From Anaerolineales bacterium (lineage in GTDB: Bacteria; Chloroflexota; Anaerolineae; Anaerolineales; DRMV01): DNA of 50,296 nucleotides. A program made the position numbers and the translations under genes. Below are positions 3,135-23,813 of the stretch, one piece after another; positions within the stretch are counted from its first letter, which is position 1; every line of letters begins with the position of its first letter. The notes below the pieces were generated by a model. The model had not been told where the DNA came from. It worked only from the letters and a program-made list of their open reading frames with translations, and made no database searches. The stretch covers positions 1 through 50,296 of the forward strand of contig JALXBY010000244.1 in NCBI GenBank assembly GCA_026991215.1, written 5' to 3'.

Positions 3135-3144
3135 CCGTGGTCTG

Positions 3145-5253: not shown

Positions 5254-5281
5254 AGTCATTCTTGGTCAGGGAGGTTTTGCC

Positions 5282-5449: not shown

Positions 5450-5464
5450 ACTTTAGGAGGTTGT

Positions 5465-7090
5465 ATGAGCCAGAAAAACGTACTTCTCCAAGGCGATGTA
5501 GACGCCATCAAATCCTATGTATTTGAGGCTTCCGGGCTACCCCAAATTCGCGGTGGCAGTCAACGGCTCATCAAATGTGAGCAAGAAGTGGAAAAGTTGG
5601 TAGAACAGCGGGGAGGGCGCACGATTTATTGCGGAGGAGGTGGTTTCCTGTTTGAAATACCTGCGGACGAAGCAGAAAATCTCAAACGCGAAATCGAGCG
5701 CATCTACCTAAAGTACACCCAAGTGGCTACTGTGACGGTAGTGTATGAAGACGCTCCTGAGCTCCCTCTTCCCGAGCCAAACATCACGGATGGCTGGGCA
5801 GGTCGTCTGGTCAAGGCCCATCAGGAAGCCCAGAGCGCCGGCGAATTTGCCCGTCGCACCGCGTTCCTGGCCGCGAGGTTGCGGGAGGCAAAACAACAAA
5901 AGCAGGTCGTACCCTTTATTGAAGCCTTCCCCTTCGGTAAGCGGTGTGAGATTTGCGGTAAGCGGGTGGCGGAAAGGAAGGTGACTTACACCCAAAGCGG
6001 GATGTTTGAAACGAAACATGTGTGTCGTGTGTGTTACCGGAGACATCGCACAGGTCGTATATGCCGCCACCGTGGTTTTGAGCGATTCTTAGAGAAGAGG
6101 AGATATAACTTACCATCCACTCCTCCCAAGGATGTGAACGAACTGGCTGCAAGTGCACGACGCCCTTATGTGGCCTTTCTCTATGCTGATGGGAACAACG
6201 TCGGCGACCTGTTACAGAAGGTCAAAGACGAGAATGAATATGCAGTCCTATCCAAGGCCCTAACAGAGGGCACAGAACAAGCCCTGTACGAGGCCCTTTG
6301 GGAGGTCTGCCAAAAGCCACTGGAACAAGAGAAAGCCTGGCCCTTTGAAATCCTCAACATCGGCGGTGATGACGTTACCCTGCTTATACAAGCCGGGTAT
6401 GCCTGGGATGTGGCCGTGGCGTTTCTGGGGAAATTCGAGCAATATGTACAAGAGAAGGTGAAGGATAATCTCGGTTATTGGCCCGCGGCTTGGCCCATGC
6501 CTATTACCGCTTCGGTGGGTATTGCTATCGCCGATGCCAAACACCCCGTGTGGTATCTGGAAGCGCTGGCCACCGACCTGCTCAAGAAAGCCAAAGTCAA
6601 GGCCCGGCAGGCGGAAACAAGCGCCATCAACTTCCTGTGGTTGCCCAACGCCATTGCCATTACCAGAGCCGAAGCCGTCACCGAGCAATACAAAGTGGGC
6701 GATTTTCATCTGACCGCACGGCCTTTTACCCTGGCGCAAGCGAGAAAGATGCAAGATGTGGTCAATATCCTCGCTTCATGGCCCCGCAGCCTGCGCCATC
6801 GGTGGGGCAAGGCCCTGGAACGCGGGCGTTGGACCGCTCTCTCCCAAATCCTTTATGACCTGGCCCGACGGCGGAACGGTGAGCATCGTGAAAAGGTGGG
6901 AAGATTCATCGATGCCTTAGAAGACTTGGCCACGACGTTTCAGGCTGAGCGGGAAGACGAGGCCCCCATTTATCTCTGGTGGCCCACCGAGGAAAATGGG
7001 CGCCGCATCTGGAAAACGCCTTTGCTGGACGCCTTGGAACTGGCCGAACTTCGCGCCATGCGGTCGGATATTCAAGAGGAGGGCGACTAA
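5465..7090 (+). CDS. cas10: Cas10 large subunit, compact (541 aa), no HD domain, intact GGDD cyclase motif
   Basis: AGGAGG lies upstream. The N-terminus starts directly with the Palm1-type motif LLQGDVDAIKSYVF...IRGGSQRL. A treble-clef Zn finger is present (C161-x2-C164...C187-x2-C190; nt 5945-6034). The Palm2 motif is ILNIGGDDVTLL, with GGDD at aa 300-303 (nt 6362-6373). Confidence 0.88.
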   Translation: MSQKNVLLQGDVDAIKSYVFEASGLPQIRGGSQRLIKCEQEVEKLVEQRGGRTIYCGGGGFLFEIPADEAENLKREIERIYLKYTQVATVTVVYEDAPELPLPEPNITDGWAGRLVKAHQEAQSAGEFARRTAFLAARLREAKQQKQVVPFIEAFPFGKRCEICGKRVAERKVTYTQSGMFETKHVCRVCYRRHRTGRICRHRGFERFLEKRRYNLPSTPPKDVNELAASARRPYVAFLYADGNNVGDLLQKVKDENEYAVLSKALTEGTEQALYEALWEVCQKPLEQEKAWPFEILNIGGDDVTLLIQAGYAWDVAVAFLGKFEQYVQEKVKDNLGYWPAAWPMPITASVGIAIADAKHPVWYLEALATDLLKKAKVKARQAETSAINFLWLPNAIAITRAEAVTEQYKVGDFHLTARPFTLAQARKMQDVVNILASWPRSLRHRWGKALERGRWTALSQILYDLARRRNGEHREKVGRFIDALEDLATTFQAEREDEAPIYLWWPTEENGRRIWKTPLLDALELAELRAMRSDIQEEGD

Positions 7091-7750
7091 ATGGTGCATC
7101 TCAAAATCGCCTTGCGTCTCAAATGGCGAACCGCGTTCCACACCACAGGCAACCGCTGGCGATGGGGCGCGGACAAGGCCCTGGTCCAGCGATATGACGA
7201 CACCTATGTACTCCCTGCCACCTCCCTCAAAGGTGCCCTGCGAGACCAGGCTGAACAATTGCTACGTGGCCATGTGCACATCTGTAATGCACCCGACCCC
7301 GGTCAAATGTGCTCGGATCTTGAGAACTTGTGCTTAGTCTGTCGGGTCTTTGGCAACCCCCGGCGGCCTTCTCTCTTACGATTTCAGGACGGGGTTTTGA
7401 GGAGAAAGAATATAGGCGAGATAGAGACCCAAATCCGCGCCGGTGTAGCCATCAGCCGACGCCGTCGTGCAGCGGTTCCCCAGCGGTTGTATTTTGTGGA
7501 AACCACCGTGGCAGGCCCCGTGGAAGCCCAGACAGTTATCGAAGGCTTCTTTCCTTCTCAACAAGAGGCCGAAGAGGCCGCGGCCCTGGTAGTTTTGGCG
7601 GCCCGGATGCTCCCGGCGTTGGGCGCGGGGCGTACCCGCGGCCTGGGTTGGCTGGAAGCCATTGAGACCGAATGCACGATGGACGGCCAGCCGTTAGCCG
7701 GGACGGCGCTGGAACGCTATTGGAACCGGTGGTTAGGAGGCGGCCAATGA
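7091..7750 (+). CDS. cas7: Cas7-family RAMP (Csm3/Cmr4-like)
   Basis: The ATG immediately follows the cas10 TAA. Motifs present are GADKALV...LPATSLKGALRD, CRVFG and the glycine-rich loop GAGRTRGLGW. Confidence 0.85.
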   Translation: MVHLKIALRLKWRTAFHTTGNRWRWGADKALVQRYDDTYVLPATSLKGALRDQAEQLLRGHVHICNAPDPGQMCSDLENLCLVCRVFGNPRRPSLLRFQDGVLRRKNIGEIETQIRAGVAISRRRRAAVPQRLYFVETTVAGPVEAQTVIEGFFPSQQEAEEAAALVVLAARMLPALGAGRTRGLGWLEAIETECTMDGQPLAGTALERYWNRWLGGGQ

Positions 7751-8985
7751 AGCCGATATGGTTGAAAATTACCCCCGAGGAGCCCCTGGTGCTGGGTTCG
7801 GTGCGGCCCGATGCCCAATTTCTGACCACCCGCGCCTACATTCCCGGCCGCCTGTTGCGGGGTGCCTGGGCCGAGTGGCTCAAAACACAAGGCGAGGAAG
7901 ATGAGGGCATTCTCGCTCAAGTCAAAAAACTGCGAATCTGGAATTTCTACCCCGCGGTGGATGATGGCCAGTTATTGTACACGTTACCCCTCCCCCTCAC
8001 GGCCATGACGTGCAAGCACGAATCGGGCTTCCAGACCGCCTTCCTGTCTAAGAACAAAGGGCACGGGGTGGTAGATACCTTGCTCCCCCAACTGGCCTAT
8101 CACTTGTTGCGCGAAGCCGGAGCCCAAATGACCGCCCCCTTCGCCCTTACATGTGCCCAATGTGATGGCCGGATGGAACCGGCAGAAGGCTTCTACGGCG
8201 TATATGAAGCCCATGGCAGGGTGGGTTACGAGCAATTTCGTCCTCGGTACCATGCCCAAACCAAAGTGGCCTTAAGCCGCTTCCGTCGGGCTTCCCAGTT
8301 TCAGATGCTTTACACCGTGAACGCACTCGCGCCCCAAGCCCCGGCGGTGATAACAAGCAACAAAAAGGATGAGCCCAAAAACAAGTCTGTGGTGTTCCTG
8401 GGGCGAGTGTACGGGGACCCACAAGCCGTACAAGAACTGCGGCAGGCCCTGGACCATGTAGCCATCGGCGCACTGCACACCCGAGGGTATGGGCGGGTGC
8501 ACGTTGAGGAGAGCGACCCCCCTCAATGGCCTGGCCTCAAGGAGCGGGTCGAAACCTTCAACCGCATTTTGACCGATCTCTGGCAGGACCTTAAACGCCT
8601 CGCGGCCAACCCGGACGGACTTCCGGAGAAGCCCGACGGCCTGTACTTCTCGGTGGACTTGCTTTCGCCCGGTGTGTTCGTCAACCACGGCCTGCCCGAA
8701 CTGGTTCCGGAGTTGTACATCAACGGTCGCGTCCTCCGGCCCATCTGGTGGGCGACTCGACCGGATATGGCCAGCGGCTGGTCCACCGCGTGGGGCCTGC
8801 CCAAGCCCACCAACCTGGCCGCACGCATGGGGAGCGTCTACGTCTACCGCTGGGACGGTAGCATGGACGACCTGCTTCCCGCACTGCAAGCCCTGGAAGC
8901 CGAAGGCCTGGGCCTGCGCCGAGACGAGGGCTTCGGCGAAATCTTGGTGTGTCATCCCTTTCATCAGGAGGTAGAAGAGCGATGA
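7747..8985 (+). CDS. csx10: Csx10-like Cas5-family RAMP (type III-D)
   Basis: The start is taken at the ATGA overlap with the upstream stop (MKPIWLKITPEEPLVLGS...YIPGRLLRGAW). G-rich loops HTRGYGRV and RRDEGFGEILV are present. Its 412-aa size and its position after cas10-cas7 match csx10 in III-D loci. Confidence 0.7.
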   Translation: MKPIWLKITPEEPLVLGSVRPDAQFLTTRAYIPGRLLRGAWAEWLKTQGEEDEGILAQVKKLRIWNFYPAVDDGQLLYTLPLPLTAMTCKHESGFQTAFLSKNKGHGVVDTLLPQLAYHLLREAGAQMTAPFALTCAQCDGRMEPAEGFYGVYEAHGRVGYEQFRPRYHAQTKVALSRFRRASQFQMLYTVNALAPQAPAVITSNKKDEPKNKSVVFLGRVYGDPQAVQELRQALDHVAIGALHTRGYGRVHVEESDPPQWPGLKERVETFNRILTDLWQDLKRLAANPDGLPEKPDGLYFSVDLLSPGVFVNHGLPELVPELYINGRVLRPIWWATRPDMASGWSTAWGLPKPTNLAARMGSVYVYRWDGSMDDLLPALQALEAEGLGLRRDEGFGEILVCHPFHQEVEER

Positions 8986-9392
8986 AGAAGTTAAATTCGA
9001 GAACCCGTCAGGCACTCGCGACGAAAGAGGACGAGTTGGTGCAACAGGCCCGCGAAGTGGCGAAGGCATTATGGGAGTCCTTAAACGAAAAACAGCGGAA
9101 AGACGGTAAGGTGCGCCAACTGCGCAACATCCTGGAAGTCGCCAAGAGCACCGACTCATGGAAGGCTTTGGCCTTGTTTGTCCGATACCAGGCTGCACGC
9201 ACTACAGATAACATTCCCCGAGATTGGGCAGAGTATCTGATTGATGAGATGGAGAACTTAACGGACACTGCCAATGAGATTGCAAAACAAACCCATGATG
9301 ACCCTAAGACAATTCACCTGGAAATGGTCACCCGCGTTTTGGGCCACGCGGTGCGCTGGCATCTCTGGGATGTGAAAAGCCAGGAGGGATAA
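8982..9392 (+). CDS. cas11: Cas11 small subunit (Csm2/Cmr5-like), all-helical, 136 aa
   Basis: The ATGA overlaps the csx10 stop. The sequence is helical with a KVRQLRNILEVAK segment resembling the Csm2 (T/S)QhRKh motif. The position is canonical. Confidence 0.65.
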   Translation: MKKLNSRTRQALATKEDELVQQAREVAKALWESLNEKQRKDGKVRQLRNILEVAKSTDSWKALALFVRYQAARTTDNIPRDWAEYLIDEMENLTDTANEIAKQTHDDPKTIHLEMVTRVLGHAVRWHLWDVKSQEG

Positions 9393-9395
9393 GCC

Positions 9396-10193
9396 ATGTT
9401 TGACACCTTTAACAACCGTGTGGTGCTGCGGGCCACTTTGGAAATGCAAACTGCCCTTTCCGTGGGTAGCCGCATTTCGCTGGAGCCCGTGGGCACGGAC
9501 CTACCCGTTATGAAAGGGCCGGATGGTCTTCCGTTCATCCCCGGCTCGTCCATCAAGGGCACGGTACGGGCGCTGACCGAGCGCATTTTGCGCAGCCTTC
9601 CCAACGGGGAGGAAATTGGTCTATGGGCCTGTGACCCCTTCGCAGACCCGTGTGTGGATCGGAACCAGGCCCGCATCTGGCTGCAGGATGAAGCAACTGA
9701 GCATCTGGTTTGGGATGAAGCCTGCACCGCGTGCCGCATCTTTGGTTCCCCCTGGCTGGCCAGCCGGGTGTCCTTTAAGGATGCCTACCTGGAGAACTCC
9801 GAAGACCTGCCTGTGGTCACCCAGATACGCGATGGCGTGGGCATTGACCGGGACCTGGGCGCGGCCCGCCAGGGCATCAAGTACGACTTTGAGGTGGTTG
9901 TGCCAGGGGCCAGGTTCGGCATTGAGATTCTGACCGAAAACCTGGACGATTGGGAGTTGGGCCTTCTCCTTTCGGTTTTGCGGTTCTGGCAAGAAGGCCA
10001 GTTGCCCTTGGGCGGCAAAGTGACTCGCGGCCCCGGCTGGGGAAAACTGAAGGACCTGCGCCTGGAGCGAATTGACCAAACCAATTTGGTGAACTACCTG
10101 ACAGGCGGCCAACCGGCCCAGGACAGCCCGGAGAAATACCTTCAGGCCTTCCGCGACTACCTGAGCCAGCAACTGAACCAAGGGGAGGGATGA
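9396..10193 (+). CDS. cas7: Cas7-family RAMP (Csm3-like, probable target-RNA-cleaving subunit)
   Basis: Motifs present are VGTDLPVMKGPDGLPFIPGSSIKGTVR (Asp loop plus the GSSxKG motif), CRIFGSPW and LGGKVTRGPGWGKL. Confidence 0.88.
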   Translation: MFDTFNNRVVLRATLEMQTALSVGSRISLEPVGTDLPVMKGPDGLPFIPGSSIKGTVRALTERILRSLPNGEEIGLWACDPFADPCVDRNQARIWLQDEATEHLVWDEACTACRIFGSPWLASRVSFKDAYLENSEDLPVVTQIRDGVGIDRDLGAARQGIKYDFEVVVPGARFGIEILTENLDDWELGLLLSVLRFWQEGQLPLGGKVTRGPGWGKLKDLRLERIDQTNLVNYLTGGQPAQDSPEKYLQAFRDYLSQQLNQGEG

Positions 10194-10196
10194 CCC

Positions 10197-11078
10197 ATGC
10201 ATAAGACCCGATACAACGCCCTGCACTTGACCGTGCGCATTCGTCCTAAAGGCCCCTTGCTGATTAAGGCCGGCGGTATCTCCGCCAACCCCGCATTGCC
10301 GGATATGCAATTCGTGCGCACGTTTCACCCTGACCGAGGCGAAACAGTCTACATTCCCGGTTCATCCCTCAAAGGGGTTGTGCGGGGATTTGTGGAGAAG
10401 GCCCTGCGCACCTTTGATGCCCGAGACAGTTGGCGTTGGGCCTGTCCAACATTCCCCGATGAAGCGGAGAGTTGTGCCCGACGCTTGCAGAATGAGACGG
10501 ATACAGCATCGGTGTACCGCCAATCCTGCGGTGCCTGCCGCATCTTCGGCCATACCCGGCTGCGGGGCCGGCTTTCCTTCACCGATTTCTTCCCCGTGGA
10601 AGAAGTGCGCACCGAAATCCGCTACGGTGTGGCCATCTCGCGGCTGACCCACGCGGTGGCCCATGGGCCTTTTGAAATGGAAGTAGCCGTCTCGGGGACG
10701 TTTGAAGGGCACCTGGTGCTGGAGAACTTTGAAATCTGGCAGTTGGGACTGGTGGCTACGGCCCTGGCCGCTATGAATCAAGGCCTGGTGAAAGTGGGCT
10801 TTGGCAAAAACCGGGGATTCGGTGAGGTAGAAGTGGAGGTGCGCGAGGCCTGGGTGGACGAAGTTGTTGTGAACTATCACCCCGAGCGCCTCCGGGGCCT
10901 GAGGGCTTTTGTGGACAACGCAACGGCGCAGGCCTATGGTTTGTTCCCACCGGCCGATTTGGACCTGCAAAACGGCCCTGAATTCACCCGTGAAGAACCG
11001 TTGGGCGTGTACACGCGGCGGGTATACGGCACGCAGGGCTGGAATGAATTAGCCCGGCTTGCCATCCAGGCACTGTGA
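10197..11078 (+). CDS. cas7: Cas7-family RAMP (Csm3/Csm5-like)
   Basis: Motifs present are LPDMQFVR...VYIPGSSLKGVVRG, CGACRIFGHTRLRG and GFGKNRGFGEVEV. Confidence 0.88.
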   Translation: MHKTRYNALHLTVRIRPKGPLLIKAGGISANPALPDMQFVRTFHPDRGETVYIPGSSLKGVVRGFVEKALRTFDARDSWRWACPTFPDEAESCARRLQNETDTASVYRQSCGACRIFGHTRLRGRLSFTDFFPVEEVRTEIRYGVAISRLTHAVAHGPFEMEVAVSGTFEGHLVLENFEIWQLGLVATALAAMNQGLVKVGFGKNRGFGEVEVEVREAWVDEVVVNYHPERLRGLRAFVDNATAQAYGLFPPADLDLQNGPEFTREEPLGVYTRRVYGTQGWNELARLAIQAL

Positions 11079-11089
11079 GGGTTGGAGCC

Positions 11090-11533
11090 ATGCAGGGATT
11101 CGTCTACTACCTGACAGGCACCAGCGAAGAGCTGCAACGCCTTGCCCAAACCCATCTGGGCGAGGCTGTCTGGCATTGGGTCGCCGACGCTGCCCGTCTC
11201 ACTGTGGGAGAAGGCTACCCTGCAGACTGGAAAGAGCAGGGGGCGGTTTTCAATACCCAAGGCGAATTGTGTTGGCGCGCGTTGGGTAATGAGCAGTACG
11301 AGGCCCTCTTGCTCACCACAAAGGCCTTGCCCAACCACAAAGTGCTGCCCGGCGAATGGACGGTAGAGGAACAGACGCTTTATCTGCAGGACTTGCGAGA
11401 AGCCCGGGTTTTGCCTCAATTCGCCCAGTATCCCACAGGAAAGTCAACAGGCAAGATTCGGATCCGGCTCTACCGTCGCAATGGTGTGCCCACCTTTGTG
11501 AGTTTGTGTGAATTCCTTGAGGAGGAAGCATGA
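11090..11533 (+). CDS. csx19: Csx19 (all1473)-like type III-D associated protein
   Basis: A protein of 147-152 aa with no RAMP motifs sits exactly where all1473/csx19 sits in III-D operons, between the third cas7 and the last RAMP. The start is either the ATG at 11090 (GAGG 7 nt upstream) or the GTG at 11075 overlapping the upstream stop. The family assignment rests on position and size only. Confidence 0.5.
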   Translation: MQGFVYYLTGTSEELQRLAQTHLGEAVWHWVADAARLTVGEGYPADWKEQGAVFNTQGELCWRALGNEQYEALLLTTKALPNHKVLPGEWTVEEQTLYLQDLREARVLPQFAQYPTGKSTGKIRIRLYRRNGVPTFVSLCEFLEEEA

Positions 11534-12537
11534 TGGCACGGCGTTCTGAACCTGAACCCAAGCCCTTCTTCTGGGTCTTGCTGGACGAGTCTCCGCAGAA
11601 AACCCGGCCGGTGTTCCACGAAAAATTTGAGGGCTGGACAGGCCGTTTGGTTTGGGAGATTGAGGTGCTCTCGGACTACCTTTATGTGGGAAGCGGGAAC
11701 CTGGACTTGGTGCGGTTGCCCGATGGCCGCGAACAGGCCCGCTATGCCTTTGCCCGCCGGGATGGGCAGTTGGTGATACCCGCGACCAGTATCAAGGGCG
11801 CGGTGCGGGCAGTGTTTGAGGCCATCACAAACTCGTGCGTTTCTCAACGAAACCGTCGGGAGCGGCCCCTTTCTACTGCTCATATGGCATGCGGTCTGGT
11901 TCGCAAAGGGAAAGAGGAGAAGGCCCGACTCTGCCCGGCCTGCCGCGTTTTTGGCACAACGGGCTACCGCGGCCGGGTGCATTTCTCCGACGCGGTCCCG
12001 GTAGGCGAGGTGCGCACCGAGACCATCAAAATCGCTGACCTGTGGCCCCCGCGCCAAGTCCGTAAGGCGCGTAAGTTTTATCAAACCAAGGCTTTCCAGA
12101 AGCAAGACCTGCACCCTCGCAAGAACACCCGTTTTCTGGAAGTTGTCCCCAAAGGAAGCCGTTTCCGTACCACCCTGTACTTTGAAAACCTGAGTGGTGC
12201 AGAAATGGGCGCACTGATGAGGGCGCTGGGCTTGGGCCTCCATTCCAGCAAGCCCAACACGATTGTTTACGCCTTCCCCCTCAAATTGGGCGGGGCCAAG
12301 CCGCGGTGTTTAGGAAGCGTCCGCTTTCATCCCCGTGGTGTATTCATTCAAACATCCCCGTCTACGGACGCAGATGATCTTTGGCAGCGGTTCCTTCAAT
12401 CTGCTCCAGGGGGGGTGAAAAACTTGCTCCTCCAGTGGCTCCAATCCGAGGCATTGTTGGACGAAGAGGCCTGGCACCAATTCCGTGCCGAAGCCCAACC
12501 CCAGACGGATGAAGCCTGCCCGCGGGAGGTGTACTGA
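11530..12537 (+). CDS. cas7: Large Cas7-like RAMP (TIGR03986-like, III-D terminal RAMP)
   Basis: The ATGA overlaps the upstream stop. Motifs present are LVIPATSIKGAVRAVFE, CPACRVFGTTGYRG and KLGGAKPRCLGSVRF. Confidence 0.8.
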   Translation: MMARRSEPEPKPFFWVLLDESPQKTRPVFHEKFEGWTGRLVWEIEVLSDYLYVGSGNLDLVRLPDGREQARYAFARRDGQLVIPATSIKGAVRAVFEAITNSCVSQRNRRERPLSTAHMACGLVRKGKEEKARLCPACRVFGTTGYRGRVHFSDAVPVGEVRTETIKIADLWPPRQVRKARKFYQTKAFQKQDLHPRKNTRFLEVVPKGSRFRTTLYFENLSGAEMGALMRALGLGLHSSKPNTIVYAFPLKLGGAKPRCLGSVRFHPRGVFIQTSPSTDADDLWQRFLQSAPGGVKNLLLQWLQSEALLDEEAWHQFRAEAQPQTDEACPREVY

Positions 12538-12872
12538 TGAGCCGCGAGGATGAACTGGTGACCCTGGCGGAACAAATCGCCGATGGCCTGCCGGGGGTCA
12601 CGCGCAACGAGTGGATGAAGTGGGTGCAGATTCTTCAGGCCTATCAAGCCCAATATCGCGATGCGCTTCAACGAGCCATCCATTACGCACAACGTTTATC
12701 CAAAGACCCCACAATGCGGCCGGCCATACAGCGGGCCCACCGCTTGATTGCGCAAACCATGCAGCGCTATGCCCGGCGCGTTGCCTCTTTGCCTCGTACC
12801 GAACAACAGCGCCTGTTCGGTTATGTGGCCTGGAGCCTGGTTGTTCAGGGTAAACAGGGGCGGAGGCGATGA
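12537..12872 (+). CDS. Hypothetical 111-aa helical protein, operon-coupled to the effector genes
   Basis: Its ATG shares one nt with the upstream TGA. The sequence looks all-helical (MSREDELVTLAEQIADGL...QRLFGYVAWSLVVQGK). I recognise no motif. Confidence 0.6.
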   Translation: MSREDELVTLAEQIADGLPGVTRNEWMKWVQILQAYQAQYRDALQRAIHYAQRLSKDPTMRPAIQRAHRLIAQTMQRYARRVASLPRTEQQRLFGYVAWSLVVQGKQGRRR

Positions 12873-12875
12873 GGA

Positions 12876-13595
12876 ATGCCACGATTTGTTTTCGATACAA
12901 ACGTACTCATCAATTATATTCGCTATGATGATCAAGAGGTGCATGATGCTTTAACAGTAGCCGCGGATTTGGGGGAAATTCTTATCTCACAGATATCTGT
13001 TTTAGAAATGTGGGCACCAGTGAAATGGAAGATCAAGGAAGAATCTCCTAACTTGGTGCCTTTATGGATTCGGAAATTAGAGGAAGGTGAGGTTCCTGCA
13101 GGAATGCAGGAGGTGCTTTTGCATGAATTAAGCGAATATCAACAACCTCTTCCAAACCAGTTTTTTGTAGATACTCTTCGAAAAGGTCGAAGATGGTCTA
13201 TTTCGGACGAAAATAAACAGCTGATTTCAGTTGTTGAATACACAGGCAATTCTCTTATCCTAATGTCTCCGGATATACGCCGCAGTCAAGTGGAACAGGA
13301 AATATCTACGCTAAAACATATTTGTGAGACGTTCGACGCTCAAATTATCCCCGTCTCAGAACGCGCCCAATATTATGCAGAGCTTATAGTTCAGCACTAT
13401 AGGGATACCCTGGGCAGAAACACCATTACGGATAGCCTCATTATAGCAACAGGACTCGAACATGACGCATGGTTGGTGACTTATGATAATAATTGGGAAA
13501 AAGTTAAGAAAGATATGAAAAACAGATCTTTGCCTTTACCTGAAATGAAAGTAATTGATCCTGCACGCGTGGCTCACGGGGAGGTGCATTCATGA
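12876..13595 (+). CDS. PIN-domain (VapC-like) nuclease with a roughly 100-aa insertion; AT-rich gene
   Basis: PIN acidic positions are FVFDTNVLI (D7), SVLEMW (E44), TITDSLIIATG and LVTYDNNW. At 239 aa it is far longer than the roughly 130 aa of a canonical VapC. Hand-counted GC on 60-nt samples is about 37-38%, against 53-58% in neighbouring cas genes. Confidence 0.75.
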   Translation: MPRFVFDTNVLINYIRYDDQEVHDALTVAADLGEILISQISVLEMWAPVKWKIKEESPNLVPLWIRKLEEGEVPAGMQEVLLHELSEYQQPLPNQFFVDTLRKGRRWSISDENKQLISVVEYTGNSLILMSPDIRRSQVEQEISTLKHICETFDAQIIPVSERAQYYAELIVQHYRDTLGRNTITDSLIIATGLEHDAWLVTYDNNWEKVKKDMKNRSLPLPEMKVIDPARVAHGEVHS

Positions 13596-14608
13596 CCAAA
13601 GTCAAAAACATCCTTCTGGCCACCCTGGGTACCGCACCTGCCGTAATTACAGAAGCCGTAGATTTGTTGCGGGAAGAAGGCGTTCACATTGATGGCATCT
13701 CGCTATTCTTGACCGAAGATTCCGATGTGCGGGATAGCTTTTCTTTGCTCGCCCAACACCTTCCTGCCCACGATGGAATTGTGTGGATTTCACCTATTCA
13801 GATCGGCGTGTACACCGATATCGACAGCACACAGGCTGCGGCCGAATTTCTCCAACTGGCCAGCCAATACCTCAAGACCCTACGAGATGCAGGCCATCGT
13901 GTGTATGTATCCATTGCAGGCGGGCGTAAAGCGATGTCTGCGCTTCTCGCGCTGGCCGTGCAATTTTTCGGCGCCGAGCGACTTTTCCATATTTGGGTTC
14001 CACCCTGGTTGGAAGAAGAAGGTGAAATCCATGAACTGCGCAAGTGGAAGCATTTACCTGAGGAATTGACCCGAAAACTGCATCCTACCTTGAACGCCGA
14101 GCCAACTGACCGCCCGCGTTTGGTTACTCTTCCTGTTATCGGACTCTTTCCTTTTCTTGAAGATATCCGCCTTGCCTTAACGGAGCAGGGCGAAGTGCCA
14201 CGCGACATTCGTCGCTTGCTCCGTGAAAACGGCCTACTTACTTCCCAGGGCGAGGTCACCGAACTGGGGCGGCTCATTAGCCAGATTCTTGAAAGCGTTG
14301 AGGGGTTGCCACCGGCCCGCCAGGAGGAATGCAAAGTCCATATTGCTCCGCATCATTACAAGGACCGACTGGAGAAATTTGCCTGGCAACTGTGTGGGCG
14401 TTTTCCCTTTATCACGGAAATTCAAAGCGGAGAGTGGCGAAGCGGTGAAGGCAAGATCAAAACCGAGCCTCCAAATCGTATCCGAATCTTTGAGCCCTTA
14501 GGCACCGACTTCCCCTTGCAATTGATTCTGACCACGACTGCCAAAACGTCGGGCCAATTGGAAGCTGCCCGGCGAGCGATTGAGCGATTCTTAAAAGCAC
14601 GGAGGTAA
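13592..14608 (+). CDS. CARF (NE0113/TIGR02584-like) protein with a wHTH-like linker and an unassigned C-terminal domain
   Basis: The ATGA overlaps the PIN stop. CARF motifs are LLATLGTAPAVITEAVDLL and SIAGGRKAMSALLA. Res 195-235 are HTH-like (RDIRRLLRENGLLTSQGEVTELGRLI). Res 245-338 match nothing I recognise. Confidence 0.7.
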   Translation: MTKVKNILLATLGTAPAVITEAVDLLREEGVHIDGISLFLTEDSDVRDSFSLLAQHLPAHDGIVWISPIQIGVYTDIDSTQAAAEFLQLASQYLKTLRDAGHRVYVSIAGGRKAMSALLALAVQFFGAERLFHIWVPPWLEEEGEIHELRKWKHLPEELTRKLHPTLNAEPTDRPRLVTLPVIGLFPFLEDIRLALTEQGEVPRDIRRLLRENGLLTSQGEVTELGRLISQILESVEGLPPARQEECKVHIAPHHYKDRLEKFAWQLCGRFPFITEIQSGEWRSGEGKIKTEPPNRIRIFEPLGTDFPLQLILTTTAKTSGQLEAARRAIERFLKARR

Positions 14609-14610
14609 CT

Positions 14611-15585
14611 ATGGGTGTCTATCACCTGATGGGTCTGGGGCGCTCACCAGGTGCCATTACTGGCCCTATCTCTTATCTGGCCTCCCGCTATCAGCGGTGG
14701 AACGAGGAGGACCGGGCCTTTTTCGCCCGCTCAGGGGAGGTTCGTCAACGGGAAGCAGGCGAGAAGGTGGGCGATATACAGGCCGTTGTGTTGTTTACGA
14801 CTCGGGAGATTCTCAGCGGAACCGTTCCAGCGTTTGACTATGTGGACAATCCACTTGGACGGATCGCAAAGGACCCGCGGGTGTCTGGCGGGCCGATGAA
14901 GGAGGTGCTTCGTCGGTTATTGCGCCGTGAATGGCCTGCCATCAGCGGCGGTCGTCCCGAAGGCACCGTCTTCTGGTGCGAAGTCGATCGCCGGGATATC
15001 CGCACCACCTATGAGCGAGTGATCTGGGTCGTGGCCGCGCTGGCCGGCGTCGGCGGGCAAGGAAAAGAGATGTGGGTCAACTTGACGGGAGGTAACAACG
15101 TGATCAACTTCGCCCTGGAACTGGCTGCTACCCTCTCCGGTGCTGTGGCGCGGCTTTATTACGTGCAGGCGGAAAACCCGGACGCTGAGAAATGTGTGCG
15201 CTTTACAGCGGAGGACGGATACTGGGTGGAATTACCGGTTATGCCCTTGGCATTGAGCCCTTTGACACGCGCTATCATTGATTTGCTTGCGCAAAAAGGC
15301 CCTATATCTTTGGGCGATCTGTACAGCATCTTGAGGAACAAGTACTGGAACTTAAGCTATGGACTCACATCGGAGGAAGTTCTGCGGGAGGCCTATCTGG
15401 CTCCAATGTGGAAACAAGGCCTTATCGTTGAGACACTTGAAGGCTATAAAATTGGCCCACAATGGGAATTGGTGCAACCTTACCAAGAATTATGGGAAGA
15501 AGCCCTCAGATGCAATGAGACCATCGAACAACTGGCCCAAACAGAGCTTTGGCTCGAACGCGAAATCATTACATGGGAGCGCTAA
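14611..15585 (+). CDS. CARF domain protein with C-terminal winged-helix (Csa3-like architecture)
   Basis: CARF-type motifs are the N-terminal LMGLGRSPGAITGPISYL and NLTGGNNVINFALELA. The C-terminal LTRAIIDLLAQKGPISLGDLYSILR...MWKQGLIVETLEGYKIGP looks like a wHTH. Confidence 0.6.
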   Translation: MGVYHLMGLGRSPGAITGPISYLASRYQRWNEEDRAFFARSGEVRQREAGEKVGDIQAVVLFTTREILSGTVPAFDYVDNPLGRIAKDPRVSGGPMKEVLRRLLRREWPAISGGRPEGTVFWCEVDRRDIRTTYERVIWVVAALAGVGGQGKEMWVNLTGGNNVINFALELAATLSGAVARLYYVQAENPDAEKCVRFTAEDGYWVELPVMPLALSPLTRAIIDLLAQKGPISLGDLYSILRNKYWNLSYGLTSEEVLREAYLAPMWKQGLIVETLEGYKIGPQWELVQPYQELWEEALRCNETIEQLAQTELWLEREIITWER

Positions 15586-15588
15586 CCC

Positions 15589-15987
15589 ATGCTCATCCTC
15601 AACTTTGCCCACCCCCTGACCGACGAACACCTGGCGCAAATCGAGAAACTCACAGGCCAGAAGCCCGAGCGGGTGGTAGTCATCAACAGCCAGATTGACC
15701 CTCAGCAGCCCCTGGCACCACAAGTCTCGGCCATGGCCGATGCTGCGGGATTGACCCCTGAAGAGTGGCAAACCCTTCCCCTCCTCATCAACCCGCCCGC
15801 GCTCAACTTTAGCGCGGTCGCGCTCATCGCGGAATTGCACGGACGCATGGGCTACTTCCCGCCCTGCATCCGCATGCGGCCCGTGGTCGGCCCAGACGGC
15901 CAGCGTGTGGTTCCGCCCCGCTTCGAGGTGGCGGAGATTTTGAACCTGCAGGCCATTCGGGATGAGGCGCGCAGGTCCCGTGCATAG
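15589..15987 (+). CDS. Small CRISPR-associated protein, possibly Csx15 family (candidate ring nuclease)
   Basis: This 132-aa ORF is the last gene of the operon. From memory, MLILNFAHPLTDEHLAQIEKLTG...LIAELHGRMGYFP...FEVAEILNLQAIRDEAR resembles the cyanobacterial Csx15-type proteins that accompany type III loci. This has not been verified. Confidence 0.4.
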   Translation: MLILNFAHPLTDEHLAQIEKLTGQKPERVVVINSQIDPQQPLAPQVSAMADAAGLTPEEWQTLPLLINPPALNFSAVALIAELHGRMGYFPPCIRMRPVVGPDGQRVVPPRFEVAEILNLQAIRDEARRSRA

Positions 15988-16014
15988 CCAGCCGCAGAAG
16001 GCAGTGCGCGCCCA

Positions 16015-17517
16015 TCAATGCCGGAAGTGCCGCACACCGGTGAACACCATGGCCAGGCCCAGGCGGTCCGCGGCTGCGATGACTTCTTTATCCCGAATGG
16101 AGCCGCCGGGCTGAATCACCGCGGTGACGCCGGCTTTGGCCGCCTCTTCCACGCCGTCCGGGAAGGGGAAGAAGGCATCCGAGGCCAGCACCGCGCCCCG
16201 GGCCCGTTCGCCCGCGCGCATGACCGCCAGACGCACCGCGTCCACCCGGTTGGGCTGGCCCCCGCCAATGCCCACGGTGGCCCGGTTCTTGACCAGGACC
16301 ACCGCGTTGGAAAGTACCGGCTGCACCGCCAGCCAGGCAAAGCGCAGGTCCTCCCATTCGGCCTCGGTCGGCTCCCGGCGGGTGACCACCTGCCAGGTGG
16401 TTCCTTCGGGGTCGCCGGGGTCGTCGTCCTGGCGGAGCATCCCCCCAAGGACCGAACGCCAGCGGGCTTCGGCCGGCGGCGCCTCAGGCAACGCCAGCAC
16501 CCGCAGGTTCTTGCGCCGCTGCAGGATTTCCAGCGCGCCCTCGGTGAAGTCGGGCGCGGCCAGCACCTCGATGAACAGGGTCCACATGGCCTGGGCCGCG
16601 GCCTCGTCCAGGGTGGTGTTCACCGCAATCACGCTGCCGAAGGCAGAAACCGGGTCCGAGGCCAGGGCCTTGCGGAAGGCCTCCGCGACGGTGCTCCCGG
16701 TGGCCAGCCCACACGGGGAGGCGTGTTTGACGATGACCACGCCAGGTTTGGGCAGCCGCTGCACCGCGCGCCAGGCCGCGTCCAGGTCCACCAGGTTGTT
16801 GAAGGAAAGGGGTTTGCCTTCCTTGAGCACCCGGCCGCCCAGGATGCCTGCCTCGGGCTGCAGGCTCCAGAGTTCGGCCTGCTGGTGGGGGTTTTCCCCA
16901 TAGCGCAACACCCGCTGACGGTAAAGGGGCAGCGCGGTGAACGCGCCTTCCGAAAGGTAGTGGGCAATGGCCGCATCGTACGCGGTGCTCCGGGCAAAGG
17001 CTTTCCAGGCCAGGCCGCGGCGGGTGGCCAGGGTGGTTTCCCCCTGGGTTTCGAGTTCGTGCAACACGGGGGCCGCATCCTGGGGGTCCACCAACACGGT
17101 GACGTGGGGGAAGTTCTTGGCCGCGGCCCGCAGCAGCGCGACCCCGCCAATGTCGATGTGTTCCAGCACGGTCTCCAGGGAAGCCTCCGGCTGGCGGATG
17201 ACCTCCTGGAAGGGGTACAGGGAGACGGCCACCAGGTCGATGCGCGGGGCCTGCAGGCGCTCCAGGTCGGCCTGGTCCTGGGGCAGGTCCCGGGCCAGGA
17301 TGCCCGCGAACACCTTAGGGTGCAGGGTTTTCACCCGGCCCTCCAGCAAGGGGGGCACCTGGGTGAGGTCCGTGATGGTCCGGGCGGGGATGCCGTGTTC
17401 GGCCAGCCAGCGGGCCGTGCCTTCTGAGGCTATCAGGGACCAACCCAGGCGGTGCAGGCCCTGGGCCAGGGGGAGCCAGGGGTCCTTTTCCCAGAAGGAA
17501 AGCAGAGCCAGGGGCAT
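16015..17517 (-). CDS. purH: Bifunctional AICAR transformylase / IMP cyclohydrolase
   Basis: Motifs present are the MGS-like N-terminus (GTARWLAEHGIPARTITDLT...EGRVKTLHPKVFAGILAR), YGENPHQ, LSFNNLVDLDAA, KHASPCG and QPGGSIRD. The start is placed at the MPLALLSF ATG, with GGAGG 7 nt upstream. Confidence 0.93.
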   Translation of the reverse strand: MPLALLSFWEKDPWLPLAQGLHRLGWSLIASEGTARWLAEHGIPARTITDLTQVPPLLEGRVKTLHPKVFAGILARDLPQDQADLERLQAPRIDLVAVSLYPFQEVIRQPEASLETVLEHIDIGGVALLRAAAKNFPHVTVLVDPQDAAPVLHELETQGETTLATRRGLAWKAFARSTAYDAAIAHYLSEGAFTALPLYRQRVLRYGENPHQQAELWSLQPEAGILGGRVLKEGKPLSFNNLVDLDAAWRAVQRLPKPGVVIVKHASPCGLATGSTVAEAFRKALASDPVSAFGSVIAVNTTLDEAAAQAMWTLFIEVLAAPDFTEGALEILQRRKNLRVLALPEAPPAEARWRSVLGGMLRQDDDPGDPEGTTWQVVTRREPTEAEWEDLRFAWLAVQPVLSNAVVLVKNRATVGIGGGQPNRVDAVRLAVMRAGERARGAVLASDAFFPFPDGVEEAAKAGVTAVIQPGGSIRDKEVIAAADRLGLAMVFTGVRHFRH

Positions 17518-17644
17518 GGCGCAACCTCCACAGGGCAGGGATGGACGCGCAAGGGGTCGGGACACAGGTCAGGGGGACCGGCCCCCGAAACACGGGGCAA
17601 GTATACTTGAATCAGCCTTTCCAGGAGGCATGCCCATGGACGTC

Positions 17645-17944
17645 AAGACCGAAGTGTACACCTGCCCCCGTTGCGGCAAAGCCATCCACATCCCCACGGG
17701 GGACTGCCCCTACTGCGGCTACCACCTGGACCTGAAGCCCCAGGACGTGTTGCGCATTCTGCGGAGCAACCCCGCGGTGCGCTACGTGCGGGTGGTGGTC
17801 AGCGATGACGCCTGCGCAGCCTGCCGTTTTGTTGAGGGCACGTATCCCAAGGAAGAAGCGCCGGAACTGCCGGTCCCGGATTGTTCCCACCCCCTGGGTT
17901 GCCGCTGCACCTACGAACCGTTGCTGGAGGATATCTTCCCGTAA
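17645..17944 (+). CDS. Small zinc-ribbon protein (99 aa)
   Basis: The sequence is MDVKTEVYTCPRCGKAIHIPTGDCPYCGYHL...CAACRF...CSHPLGCRC. AGGAGG lies 7 nt upstream. The reading frame is embedded in a long spurious track ORF (16967..17944). Confidence 0.6.
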   Translation, partial: KTEVYTCPRCGKAIHIPTGDCPYCGYHLDLKPQDVLRILRSNPAVRYVRVVVSDDACAACRFVEGTYPKEEAPELPVPDCSHPLGCRCTYEPLLEDIFP

Positions 17945-19425
17945 TCCGGCCCCTGGGTTTGCAGCCAGGCACGGACCCAGTCCAGGGCCTGTTCCCGGGT
18001 GGTCACCTCGCCGGCGACCTGGGCCTCTTTCAGGGCTTCGAGAATCCGGCCCAGGAGGGGGCCCGGGCTCAGGCCCAGGGCCTGCATCAGGTCATGGCCC
18101 CGGAGCAGGGGCACCGGGTCCACCCACGTCTCCCGGTGTTCCCACCAGGCCTCCCACATGCGGCGGACCACATCCACCTGGTGGTTCCAGGCCGAACGGG
18201 GGACCTTGAGGCCGGCTTTGGCCCGGAAATCGGCCAGGTGGAGCAGCCCAAGGGCCACCCCTGCTTCGCCGGCCGTACGGTAGAAGCGATACAGGTCCAC
18301 CGGCTCCGGAAGCGTCCCTTTCTGGTAACGCCGGGGCCACATGTGCTGCCCTACGAAGCGGCCCAGCCAGCGGACCTCTTCCCGGGCCAGGCGCAAGGCC
18401 CTGGCCCGTTCCTCGATGATGACCCGGCCGGCCCGGGCGTGGGCTTCGGGGTCGGGATGCAGGACCGGTACCTGCTGTTTGCCCACGTCGTGATACAGCA
18501 CCCCCAGTTTGAGCAGGCCCAGCCGCGGGCGGAAGCCGGCCATCTCTTCCCGCAGGTAGTCGGCCAGCCGGTGGCGGTAACGGCCCAGCCGCCAGGAGAC
18601 CTGGGCCAAAAAGACGTTGGCCACCTTGTCCGGGTCGTAGGGGGGCAGCAGCGCGTCCAGCAGGTCCTGCAGGTGTTCCAGCGTATGCAGGGTATGGTCC
18701 CACAGGGTCCGGTCCTCGCCGTAACTGGGGGGCAGGGCCACTTCGGTCATGGCCTCGGCTTCGGGGAGCACCGGCGCCAGCCCGTTCAACCGCTGTAGCA
18801 GCCGCAGGGCCGAAGGGAAGGCCCGGAGGCCCAAAAGCCGGAAGAGTTCGTCCCGTACACGTTCGGGGGAAACCAGGGTGAGCCGGGCCGCGGCCAGTCG
18901 CAGGGCCTTGCGGGTTTCGGGCAGGATGGTCAGGTTCAACTCCAGCGCGAAGCGAACGGCCCGGAGCACCCGCACGGGGTCGTCCAGCGCGGCCTGGGGG
19001 TAGCACAGGCGCAACCGGCGGTCCTTGAGGTCCTGCAGGCCGTGGGTGGGGTCGATGAGGCGGTGGGGCTGCAGGGGGTCTACGGCCAGGGCGTTGATGG
19101 TGAAGTCCCGCAGGCGGAGGTCGTCCTCTAAGGTCGGGCCCCGGTAGGCCGCGAAGTCCAGCACCCGCCGACCCTGGGCGGTCTGGAGGATGACGCGGGC
19201 CACGTCCCGCTCCGGGTCCAGGGGGAAGACATCGGCCTGCAGGTGCCGGGCCACGTGCCGGGCCCAGCCCAGGGCGCCATGGGGCAGCACGAAGTCCATA
19301 TCGACCACAGGCCGCTGCAAGAGCCAATCCCGGACCGCGCCGCCCACCAGGTGCACGGGCAGGTCGGCCGGCAGGAGCCGGCGCACCTCAACGGCCAGTT
19401 CGGGCAGGGGGTGCAGCGTACTCAA
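17911..19425 (-). CDS. CCA-adding enzyme / poly(A) polymerase-family nucleotidyltransferase with HD domain
   Basis: The head motif is VHLVGGAVRDWLLQRPVVDMDFV and the HD motif is LGVLYHDVGK. The start is proposed at a TTG overlapping the hpt stop (TTGA). The 65 codons upstream in the track ORF overlap hpt and look spurious. Confidence 0.8.
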   Translation of the reverse strand: MSTLHPLPELAVEVRRLLPADLPVHLVGGAVRDWLLQRPVVDMDFVLPHGALGWARHVARHLQADVFPLDPERDVARVILQTAQGRRVLDFAAYRGPTLEDDLRLRDFTINALAVDPLQPHRLIDPTHGLQDLKDRRLRLCYPQAALDDPVRVLRAVRFALELNLTILPETRKALRLAAARLTLVSPERVRDELFRLLGLRAFPSALRLLQRLNGLAPVLPEAEAMTEVALPPSYGEDRTLWDHTLHTLEHLQDLLDALLPPYDPDKVANVFLAQVSWRLGRYRHRLADYLREEMAGFRPRLGLLKLGVLYHDVGKQQVPVLHPDPEAHARAGRVIIEERARALRLAREEVRWLGRFVGQHMWPRRYQKGTLPEPVDLYRFYRTAGEAGVALGLLHLADFRAKAGLKVPRSAWNHQVDVVRRMWEAWWEHRETWVDPVPLLRGHDLMQALGLSPGPLLGRILEALKEAQVAGEVTTREQALDWVRAWLQTQGPDYGKISSSNGS

Positions 19426-20012
19426 TCCTTTTCCTCCCCAGGCAGGGTACGCGGGGGCCGGTACTTGTTCAGGTCCGGCACCGCGATGAAGGGGAGGTTG
19501 CGCCAGTAGCCGTCCATATCCAGCCCATAGCCGAACACGAAGTAATTGGGGATTTCGAACCCCCGGTAGTGGATGGGTACGTCCACTTCCCGGCGGGCCC
19601 GCTTGTCCAACAGGACGCACACCCGGATGGACTTGGGCTGCCGCACCTCCAGCAGGCGGAGCACCTGGGAGATGGTGTGGCCGGTATCGATGATGTCTTC
19701 GACCAGGATGACGTGCCGGTCCCGGATGGAACTCTGCAGGTCCATGGTGAGGCGGATTTCGCCTGGCTCGCGGCGGCCCACGCCGTAGGACTGGATGGCC
19801 ATGAAGTCGATTTCATGGGGGATGCGCAGGTAGCGCACCAGGTCGGTGAGGAACATCACGCCGCCCCGCAAGATGCAGACCAGCAGGGGGACCTTGCCTT
19901 CGTAGTCCCGGTTGATTTCCTCGGCCAGTTCCGCGATGCGCTGCTGGAGCACGTCTTCGGGAATCAGGATTTCCTTAAGGTACTCCCGGTAGTCCTGCAC
20001 CATCCTGGTCAT
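19422..20012 (-). CDS. hpt: Hypoxanthine-guanine phosphoribosyltransferase
   Basis: Motifs present are [12 protein letters not shown], the PRPP loop [14 protein letters not shown] and [24 protein letters not shown]. Confidence 0.92.
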
Positions 20013-20607
20013 GGTCCTTCTCCTCCTTCACGGGCGGAAGCACTCGGTGGTGGGCGCGGCAGCGGGGTTCGTACAGTTCCTGCGCGCCCACCAGCACCAC
20101 GGGGTCGTCGTACCGGGCCGGACGGCCGTCGATCAACCGCTGGGAGCGGGTCGCGGGGCCCCCGCAGACCATGCAAATCGCGTGGAGTTTGGTGACCTCG
20201 TCGGCCAGGGCCAGCAGCAGGGGCATGGGGCCGAAGGGCTCGCCCCGGAAGTCCATATCCAGGCCGCTGACGATGACCCGCAGGCCCCGGTCCGTGAGTT
20301 TCCGCACCACGTCCACGATGGTCTCGTCGAAGAACTGGGCTTCGTCGATGGCCACCACCCGGGTTTCGGGCTTCAGGTGGCGGAAGACTTCTTCTGGGCG
20401 GGCGATGGGGATGGCTTCAAACCGGGCCCCCGCGTGGGAGGCAACTTGCTTGCGGTCGTAACGGTTGTCCAGCAGGGGTTTGAAGACCTGAACGGGTTGG
20501 CGGGCAATCCGGGCGCGGCGCAACCGGCGGATGAGTTCTTCGGTCTTGCCGCTGAACATGGGTCCGGTGATGACCTCAAGCCAGCCATGGATAAGGCCAT
20601 GGTCCAT
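19975..20607 (-). CDS. tdk: Thymidine kinase
   Basis: Motifs present are the P-loop [23 protein letters not shown] and the Zn ribbon [13 protein letters not shown]...CRAHH. The start is at MDHGLIHG, with GGAGGAG 9 nt upstream. The 3' end overlaps hpt by 38 nt. Confidence 0.9.
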
Positions 20608-20653
20608 GCGTTCAGCCTCCTCCACGATGGGGTGCCTTCGATTGTACTTGATG

Positions 20654-20716
20654 TGGTTGGTGGTCGATGGTCGATGGTCGTTGGTCGTTGGTCGGTGGTC
20701 GGTGGTCGTTCGTCGG
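20654..20716. repeat. Heptanucleotide tandem repeat, 9 units (TGGTTGG TGGTCGA x2 TGGTCGT x2 TGGTCGG x2 TGGTCGT TCGTCGG)
   Basis: Read directly and period exactly 7. It lies in the divergent tdk / pfpI-like intergenic region. Confidence 0.9.
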
Positions 20717-20757
20717 GGGAGGGCAGTGCCCGCCCCTGAGGTGGGGGAAGGGCCAGG

Positions 20758-20763
20758 TATAAT
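20758..20763 (+). promoter_or_regulatory. Consensus TATAAT -10 hexamer, candidate promoter of the PfpI-like gene
   Basis: TATAAT lies 90 nt upstream of the ATG at 20853. No convincing -35 is visible. Confidence 0.25.
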
Positions 20764-20852
20764 CGCCAGGGGTTGTGAAGCCATCCGCGAGGGGGCCGGA
20801 TAGCGGGCGTGAACGCCTGAGGCCCCGAAGCCCATTCCATAAGGAGGCGTGT

Positions 20853-21377: not shown

Positions 21378-21387
21378 CGGCGGGCGG

Positions 21388-21478: not shown

Positions 21479-21495
21479 CGAAGGAGGAATCTCCA

Positions 21496-22842: not shown

Positions 22843-22863
22843 AGGCCCTTCAGGACCTATGGG

Positions 22864-23627: not shown

Positions 23628-23651
23628 TCGATGAAAATTCCGGTTCGAGGC

Positions 23652-23792: not shown

Positions 23793-23813
23793 AGCCATCG
23801 CCCTACGGCCCAG

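Follow-up and report, generated by a model that had tools for sequence, protein, structure and literature searches.

An AT-rich VapC-like PIN gene with an orphan insertion in a rare type III-D CRISPR operon clade: a candidate dosage-limited accessory RNase

Several ribonucleases of the PIN superfamily have been described in type III CRISPR-Cas settings. Fusions of a CARF sensor to a PIN domain and a Nob1-like PIN cluster, C3a166, are known (PMC6546367), PIN RNases are among the effectors activated by cyclic oligoadenylates (cOA) (PMC12669027), and a CRISPR-associated NYN ribonuclease trims CRISPR RNA (crRNA) in the type III-B system of B. fragilis (PMC11346440). Most recently, a VapBC-like 'TA [toxin-antitoxin] module' in a III-D2 locus of Gammaproteobacteria bacterium HyVt-522 was reported to be required for phage defence, and not for growth arrest (PMC13294483). 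Here we analyse a VapC-like PIN-domain gene embedded in a type III-D operon on a 50,296-nucleotide (nt) stretch of DNA from an Anaerolineales bacterium (Chloroflexota; contig JALXBY010000244.1), the whole of which we refer to as the window. A previous sequence-only reading of this DNA held that PIN domains are not standard type III effectors, which is an overstatement given the CARF-PIN fusions, C3a166, the NYN RNase and the III-D2 VapBC-like modules already published (PMC6546367, PMC11346440, PMC13294483, PMC12669027).

The gene resembles each of these systems in part. As in the CARF-PIN fusions (Shah cluster 104, Msed_1167; S. tokodaii ST0035), a PIN domain and a CARF sensor meet in type III signalling, but in the window they are separate genes overlapping by 4 nt, and the CARF gene persists where the PIN gene has decayed. 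As in the III-D2 module, a standalone VapC-like PIN protein and a small partner occur in a III-D-lineage locus; the III-D2 locus, however, has a fused Cas7, CorA and signalling by SAM-AMP (S-adenosyl methionine-AMP), whereas the window has unfused Cas7, Csx19 and CARF genes, and the two PIN proteins are likened by description, not by sequence. The NYN RNase and C3a166 are likewise standalone PIN-superfamily RNases of type III loci; unlike them, the window protein has no Pfam NYN match at E <= 0.1, its best structural matches are VapC proteins, and both subtype and genomic context differ. Its similarity to C3a166 (PADLOC PDLC01081, E = 1.1e-10) covers PIN residues 136-218 and profile positions 62-141 of 157, and is compatible with generic PIN similarity. 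With VapC toxins (Rickettsia felis VapC2 3zvk, Shigella VapC 5ecw/3tnd, Klebsiella VapC 7by2) it shares the PIN fold, the acidic set D7/E44/D186/D-E204 and a small gene upstream; unlike them, it carries an insertion of ~87 amino acids (aa) between helix 2 and helix 3 and belongs to a family confined to III-D operons. The family is unnamed and rare; its insertion is an orphan and its evolutionary signature unusual. Standalone PIN/VapC-like genes in III-D-lineage loci have just been shown to be necessary for defence (PMC13294483), and the family described here provides a second, independent case. The features on which the analysis turns are the following.

12876-13595, plus strand: VapC-like PIN-domain gene, an ATG open reading frame (ORF) of 239 aa, GC 41.4%, GC at third codon positions (GC3) 37.1%
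13020-13286, plus strand: insertion within the PIN gene (residues about 49-137), an orphan alpha/beta subdomain missing from insert-less homologues in the same slot
12862-12878, plus strand: 5' coupling signal read in the sequence, with GGAGG at 12862-12866, TGA at 12870-12872, one codon, and the PIN ATG at 12876
13580-13595, plus strand: 3' coupling signal read in the sequence, with GGAGG at 13580-13584 within the PIN gene and an ATGA stop/start overlap with the CARF gene at 13592-13595
12537-12872, plus strand: conserved 111-aa partner gene, a predicted five-helix bundle with no family match, upstream of the PIN gene wherever the contig extends
13592-14608, plus strand: CARF5/Csx14-type CARF protein, 338 aa, directly downstream of the PIN gene (PADLOC CARF5--CARF, E = 7.8e-144; NCBIfam Csx14, E = 1.6e-31)
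36702-37421, minus strand: identical mirror copy of the PIN gene, an assembly artefact of the palindromic window

The last of these follows from the structure of the window, which reads the same on both strands, with 0 mismatches, about a centre between 25148 and 25149. It consists of a 25,148-nt sequence and its mirror image, almost certainly through an assembly fold-back artefact. Every feature is doubled, and only positions 1-25148 are unique.

The protein was assigned to the PIN domain by Pfam (PF01850, 45.1 bits against a cut-off of 23.6), the match falling in two stretches split by the insertion. The family profile matches VapC 7by2_B (E = 6.5e-5), and Foldseek searches with an AlphaFold2 (AF2) model (predicted local distance difference test, pLDDT, 81.5), in which an alpha/beta/alpha PIN core is interrupted by the insertion, placed VapC toxins first (3zvk, 5ecw, 9h6a and 3tnd; TM scores of 0.71-0.77 normalised to target length); matches 1-33 are nearly all VapC or PIN proteins. 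A PDB sequence search with the protein matched nothing, a Foldseek search of viral structures returned nothing meaningful, and no CARF match was found within the 239 aa in Pfam, NCBIfam or PADLOC. All four acidic positions named in the sequence-only reading are present: D7, E44 and D186 do not vary across 18 close homologues, 17 of which have D or E at position 204, and E44 and D186 are also invariant in 16 broader family members, where position 7 varies (E in P0025, N in the aberrant P0044). Besides the catalytic residues, ~60 positions are invariant in the close homologues, invariance is also seen at some 11 positions within the insert, and dN/dS (the ratio of nonsynonymous to synonymous substitution rates) is 0.15-0.27. 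We conclude that the gene encodes a VapC-type PIN protein under purifying selection, predicted to be functional and not a relic.

The insertion had been noticed before, and its presence stands, but the earlier figure of about 110 aa was too large: measured against insert-less homologues from the same slot (L005, 151 aa; L006, about 144-170 aa; numbers with L denote homologous loci) it comes to ~86-88 aa. The model predicts a strand, two helices and a four-strand beta-meander for it. It is the most divergent part of the protein between alleles, and neither Foldseek nor a PDB profile search nor Pfam gave it a credible match; PI3K matches with E about 0.02 were judged spurious. A separate observation concerns two insert-less proteins, P0021 (L017, 1645-2148) and P0043 (L019, 8001-8699), which carry short Cys-rich, zinc-ribbon-like segments (CPxC, CxxxC...CPxC) at the helix 2/helix 3 loop.

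Relatives of the protein are few. Full-length matches amount to 18 clusters among 5.8 billion clustered proteins, all 237-242 aa long but for one mis-started 284-aa entry, and an exhaustive profile search of 1.84 billion representatives yielded 34 proteins: three with the insertion, at identities down to 36-40%, ~25 PINs of 140-180 aa that lack it, and a few with Cys-rich mini-inserts at the same loop. The helix 2/helix 3 loop is an insertion hot spot of the family. Every member with readable context occupies the same slot, in the order last Cas7, ~105-111-aa protein, PIN, CARF5/Csx14. The loci examined hold 35 distinct PIN sequences and include Caldilineae and Thermoflexus metagenome-assembled genomes as well as 24 further metagenome loci; no relative was found in IMG/VR viral contigs, phage records or plasmid records. 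The PIN gene is a dedicated part of one rare III-D operon clade, found mainly in Chloroflexota-like hosts. Homologues lying only outside CRISPR loci, with unconserved acidic residues, would have spoken against the sequence-only reading; they were looked for, and the picture is clearly the opposite, with acidic residues, insertion and III-D context all conserved.

The gene is tightly knit into its operon on both sides. GGAGG lies 9 nt ahead of the PIN ATG, the gap between the upstream stop and this ATG is 3 nt (as also in L001, L004, L008 and L011-L013), and the 111-aa and PIN ORFs share one reading frame (window 12537-13595), with only the stop and one codon between them. Downstream, the 4-nt PIN/CARF overlap is kept in homologous loci, and the segment survives even in the decayed PIN remnant of L020. 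The 3-nt gap, the ATGA overlap and the length of 239 aa had all been read correctly before. By these signals the PIN gene is translationally coupled to both neighbours. A promoter and terminator scan of 12000-14500 gave no more sites than shuffled sequence, and an Rfam scan of the unique half of the window gave no family at threshold. The in-frame 111-aa/PIN layout is seen in most homologous loci, including L005, L014 and L017 with their longer gaps, and is missing from L006 and L016.

Within this operon the PIN gene stands out by its base composition. Its GC of 41.4% (GC1 54%, GC2 33%, GC3 37.1%) compares with 52-60% in the other cas genes (GC3 54-73%) and 66-72% in the housekeeping flanks, it is the lowest-GC 720-nt segment in the unique 25 kb (the next lowest non-overlapping one being 0.525), and its z-score against the cas island is -6.4. 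A two-breakpoint maximum-likelihood scan delimited the low-GC block at 12884-13558 (GC 0.40 inside vs 0.569 outside), so that the sharp fall at the gene boundaries reported by the sequence-only reading holds as a gene-sized break, but its value of 37-38% is that of GC3, not of the gene as a whole. Codon usage follows suit: the codon adaptation index (CAI), referred to host-type genes of the window (purH, a CCA/poly(A) polymerase-family nucleotidyltransferase, tdk, tsaD and others), is 0.29 vs 0.39-0.57 for the other cas genes, and rare codons, defined as used <10% within their codon family and including TTA, AGA, TCT, ACA and GCA, make up 28% of the gene vs 10-18% of other cas genes. N-terminal core, insert and C-terminal core are all evenly low in GC (each 0.39-0.48), and AT-richness as a property of the insertion alone was therefore rejected. 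As a side observation, the CRISPR island at 4285-15987 (55-60% GC) itself lies ~10 points below the housekeeping flanks at 1-4000 and 16000-25148 (66-72%), so the PIN dip is a second step down within an already lower-GC island.

The same composition recurs throughout the family. PIN GC and GC3 are below the flank mean in all 35 distinct loci (mean differences -0.094 and -0.157, respectively), insert-less relatives at 31-40% identity to the window PIN included, and PIN is the lowest-GC gene in 34/34; in the Thermoflexus locus, an example of the insert-less homologues at only ~31-33% identity, it has 0.44-0.46 GC vs 0.59-0.68. Third-position changes were then polarised by parsimony in the trio formed by the window, L001 and L008. 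A recent import would be expected to show an excess of AT-to-GC changes; the PIN gene shows none (AT-to-GC, 37 changes over 146 sites; GC-to-AT, 44 over 93), and something gene-specific holds it AT-rich. The implied equilibrium GC3 is 0.35 for PIN (observed 0.36-0.40) vs 0.53 for the flanks (bootstrap difference -0.18, 95% confidence interval (CI) -0.27 to -0.09), and in a second trio (L004/L011/L021) it is 0.475 vs 0.585 in the flanks (CI -0.20 to -0.015). We conclude that the AT-richness is a gene-specific steady state common to the whole family and no scar of recent transfer. Its simplest candidate cause, which we infer from composition only, is selection for poorly adapted codons to limit expression. 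The throttled rare-codon gene envisaged as one option in the sequence-only reading fits these data (CAI 0.29, 28% rare codons) better than insertion does, and is favoured, if unproven. If codon de-optimisation is indeed maintained to limit a toxic nuclease in a polycistronic defence operon, the gene would show clearly that poor codons can be selected for, and would caution that an AT-rich gene within a GC-rich genome need not be a recent arrival.

Further to that, the slot itself has a history of exchange and loss. Between the window and L010 or L012, the Cas7, 111-aa and CARF5 flanks are 89-95% identical in protein (nucleotide identity ~0.9; synonymous divergence, dS, 0.19-0.60), whereas the PIN proteins are 57-62% identical (nucleotide 0.60-0.68, dS 1.6-1.75), the latter dS being as deep as the deepest split of the sample. 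The drop in identity is confined to the PIN ORF, from just inside the start codon to the stop. It is absent between the window and L001 or L008, and the discordance is therefore pair-specific. Uniformly faster evolution of PIN was rejected: PIN and flanks have the same dS when the window is compared with L001 or L008, and in the deep pairs, and a three- to eight-fold excess in PIN is limited to specific pairs. This indicates whole-gene allele replacement, or long-maintained allele classes, between closely related operons. Long and short PIN alleles are likewise discordant with the operon phylogeny; in L016, for example, an insert-bearing PIN is accompanied by 111-aa and CARF genes that share 79% identity with their counterparts in the insert-less Caldilineae locus. 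In L020 (Ardenticatena sp. GCA_027075665.1, JALTAX010000046.1, 10337-10502) the syntenic III-D operon is intact except for PIN, of which only 5' and 3' remnants are left in a 166-nt spacer: ATA stands in place of the start ATG, a 1-nt deletion in the D7 codon shifts the frame, and deletions of 509 nt and about 49 nt have removed further sequence. The 3' end of the PIN gene, which supplies the CARF gene with its Shine-Dalgarno sequence and ATGA, is kept there, and the 111-aa and CARF genes are intact. The PIN slot is thus evolutionarily active, with alleles that are replaced and a gene that can be lost.

The surrounding genes give this slot its functional setting. In full, the operon runs Cas10, Cas7, a Cas5-like RAMP, III-D Csm2, two Cas7, Csx19, a TIGR03986-like Cas7, the 111-aa gene, PIN, CARF5/Csx14, CARF3 and Csx15, with one more CARF gene and an AAA-Csx3 gene upstream.

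5465-12537, plus strand: type III-D effector genes Cas10, Cas7, Cas5-like, Csm2/Cas11, Cas7, Cas7, Csx19 and Cas7 (Pfam, NCBIfam, PADLOC)
5465-7090, plus strand: Cas10, 541 aa, with GGDD (ILNIGGDDVT) and a Cys-rich segment (CEICGK...CRVCY), HD domain not detected
3145-4260 (minus strand), 4285-5253, 13592-15585 and 15589-15987: four candidate cOA-binding or -degrading proteins (AAA-Csx3, CARF3, CARF5/Csx14, a second CARF3) and Csx15

The assignment to III-D is based on Csx19 (PADLOC E = 1.6e-38), III-D Csm2 (E = 5.3e-34), an HD-less GGDD Cas10 and four Cas7-like RAMPs; these matches bear out the placing of a coupled PIN gene within a type III-D effector operon by the sequence-only reading. Because Cas10 has GGDD and no detected HD domain, the system probably relies on signalling rather than on Cas10 DNase activity. 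The CARF domain of the CARF5/Csx14 protein resembles those of Cad1 and the ring nuclease Crn1, and no nuclease or effector domain was recognisable in the CARF proteins or Csx3 of the window, the C-terminal halves of the CARF proteins carrying no assigned domain.

Taken as a whole, we tentatively read the PIN protein as a dosage-limited accessory RNase of this III-D clade, with slightly less assurance for an effector role specifically. It would be a metal-dependent endoribonuclease forming an accessory RNase arm of the system. Most likely it would act in trans with the CARF signalling module, in the manner of a CARF-PIN fusion effector split over two genes, and would not be a classical VapBC addiction toxin; such a role is suggested because, next to a cyclase-competent Cas10, three CARF proteins and Csx3, no further effector nuclease can be recognised in the locus. 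Selection would favour poor codons so that less of a dosage-sensitive nuclease than of the structural subunits is translated from their common mRNA. The ~87-aa insertion would be a clade-specific add-on that probably tunes substrate or partner recognition, or serves as a lid. A more elaborate form of the proposal, which we regard as unlikely in all its parts together, is a split cOA-controlled effector: a VapC-like toxin restrained in trans by CARF5, by the 111-aa protein or by its own lid, with codons kept poor so that the effector-complex mRNA yields only traces of it, and with whole alleles with or without the insertion shuffled among III-D operons under phage counter-defence. If this were true, the operon would hold a 'hot-swappable' effector slot with codon de-optimisation as dosage control. 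Testable handles are provided by the orphan insertion, which marks one sub-clade, by the natural allele swaps and one natural knockout, and by a composition that argues for a selected expression level.

Several points weigh against the accessory RNase reading. We infer, rather than observe, RNase activity, toxicity, a link to cOA and contact with the CARF or 111-aa proteins, and the PIN protein itself lacks a sensor domain. PIN alleles change without matching change in either neighbour, which makes a tight allele-specific interface unlikely, and the CARF and 111-aa genes remain intact where PIN has decayed, which argues that their products are independent of it. On the side of composition, the second trio (L004/L011/L021) agrees in direction with the first and has a weaker effect, and an AT-rich allele pool recombining among III-D loci could add to the pattern. 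One of five AF2 models of the PIN protein was confident (81.5; the others 42-65), and the fold of the insertion is accordingly tentative.

Among the alternatives, a crRNA maturation nuclease, which would trim or process crRNA intermediates as proposed for the NYN RNase and C3a166, is unlikely, though the least so. The sole PADLOC match of the PIN protein is C3a166, labelled 'poss. crRNA proc.' (E = 1.1e-10), a role that Shah et al. proposed for cas6-less type III modules (PMC6546367); neither cas6 nor a CRISPR array was found in the unique 25 kb of the window, and the PIN gene sits within the effector operon, at its end. However, the homologous loci L001 and L020 do have cas6 genes nearby, and the C3a166 match spans only the generic C-terminal half of the PIN domain, while the structural matches are VapC toxins and not Nob1 or NYN proteins. 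Nor would ancient swapped alleles, or loss from an intact operon, be expected of a housekeeping maturation enzyme.

The PIN protein might instead switch the signal off, degrading the second messenger made by Cas10 and so resetting the response, as suggested for the III-D2 VapC-like protein. That module is needed for phage defence and not for growth arrest, its authors proposed SAM-AMP degradation (PMC13294483), and in the window the PIN gene adjoins CARF signalling genes. SAM-AMP degradation in III-D2 is itself a proposal, however, and the locus already has candidate ring nucleases in the Crn1-like CARF5 and Csx3. An enzyme acting on a single small molecule would not be expected to diversify into alleles, and we know of no PIN/VapC enzyme that cleaves cyclic oligoadenylates or SAM-AMP. 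We consider this function improbable.

Equally doubtful is a classical VapBC addiction module, with the 111-aa protein as antitoxin and PIN as toxin, the pair stabilising the CRISPR island. A small gene followed by a tightly coupled PIN gene, the VapC-like fold, and the toxin-antitoxin modules described in III-D2 loci (PMC13294483) would all suit it. The nature of the 111-aa protein does not. Its AF2 model (pLDDT 94.4) has five helices, and this bundle, unlike a DNA-binding VapB, lacks both a DNA-binding domain of the ribbon-helix-helix (RHH), AbrB or Phd type and an extended C-terminal tail. No Pfam, NCBIfam or PADLOC family was found for it, and Foldseek against the PDB gave nothing significant (best E = 0.5); weak matches of the model to the Cas11 family (Cmr5, E = 1.0; Csm2, E = 4.7) are a lead only. 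It is better conserved than PIN (75-98% identity), and holds 93-98% identity where the PIN allele shifts to 57-62%. In place of the cognate, DNA-binding and co-evolving VapB expected upstream of a VapC, we thus find a protein without co-variation with PIN alleles that survives the loss of PIN in L020, and a classical toxin-antitoxin pair is unlikely for this reason. Searches of proteins, viral contigs, phages and plasmids never found the pair outside III-D operons. Since the 111-aa gene is intact where PIN is a remnant, its product should have a PIN-independent role, and an extra small subunit (possibly Cas11-like) or an adaptor is more plausible than an antitoxin.

That an AT-rich cassette was recently inserted into a GC-rich operon by horizontal transfer, which the sequence-only reading had offered as one explanation of the composition, is largely refuted by the present data, and we give it very little credence. 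The compositional boundaries are sharp and gene-exact, and whole-gene allele replacement does happen in the PIN slot; but the slot is filled and AT-rich in every one of the 35 loci, the relatives at 31-40% identity among them, the PIN genes of the window, L001 and L008 have co-diverged with their flanks at similar dS, and PIN sits at or near its own low-GC compositional equilibrium without amelioration towards the flanks. Phages, plasmids and viral contigs yielded no donor pool. No more credible is a decaying gene pushed towards AT by mutation bias under relaxed constraint: at least one lineage does without PIN (the remnant in L020) and the dN/dS of PIN is somewhat above that of its neighbours, but the ORF is intact in every other locus, dN/dS stays at 0.15-0.27, the catalytic residues and ~60 other positions are invariant, and the synonymous rate equals that of the flanks in several locus pairs.

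Some minor observations concern gene calls and repeats elsewhere in the window. The Cas7 ORF at 7091-7750 and the listed Cas5-like ORF at 7672-8985 overlap by 79 nt; in homologous loci the Cas5-like gene (~405 aa) starts with a 4-nt overlap, and its true start in the window probably lies after 7672. The plus-strand ORF at 16018-17427 (469 aa, GC1 0.87, no Pfam match) runs antisense to purH (16015-17565, minus strand; AICARFT/IMPCHase, E = 3e-106) and was rejected as a spurious shadow ORF, as is usual in high-GC DNA. Finally, a 745-aa ORF at 21430-23667 on the minus strand, with no Pfam match, has heptad and 14-nt tandem repeats (TGGTCGT / ACCATCGACCAACG) at its two ends and beside it (20653-20716, 21380-21486 and 23532-23620).

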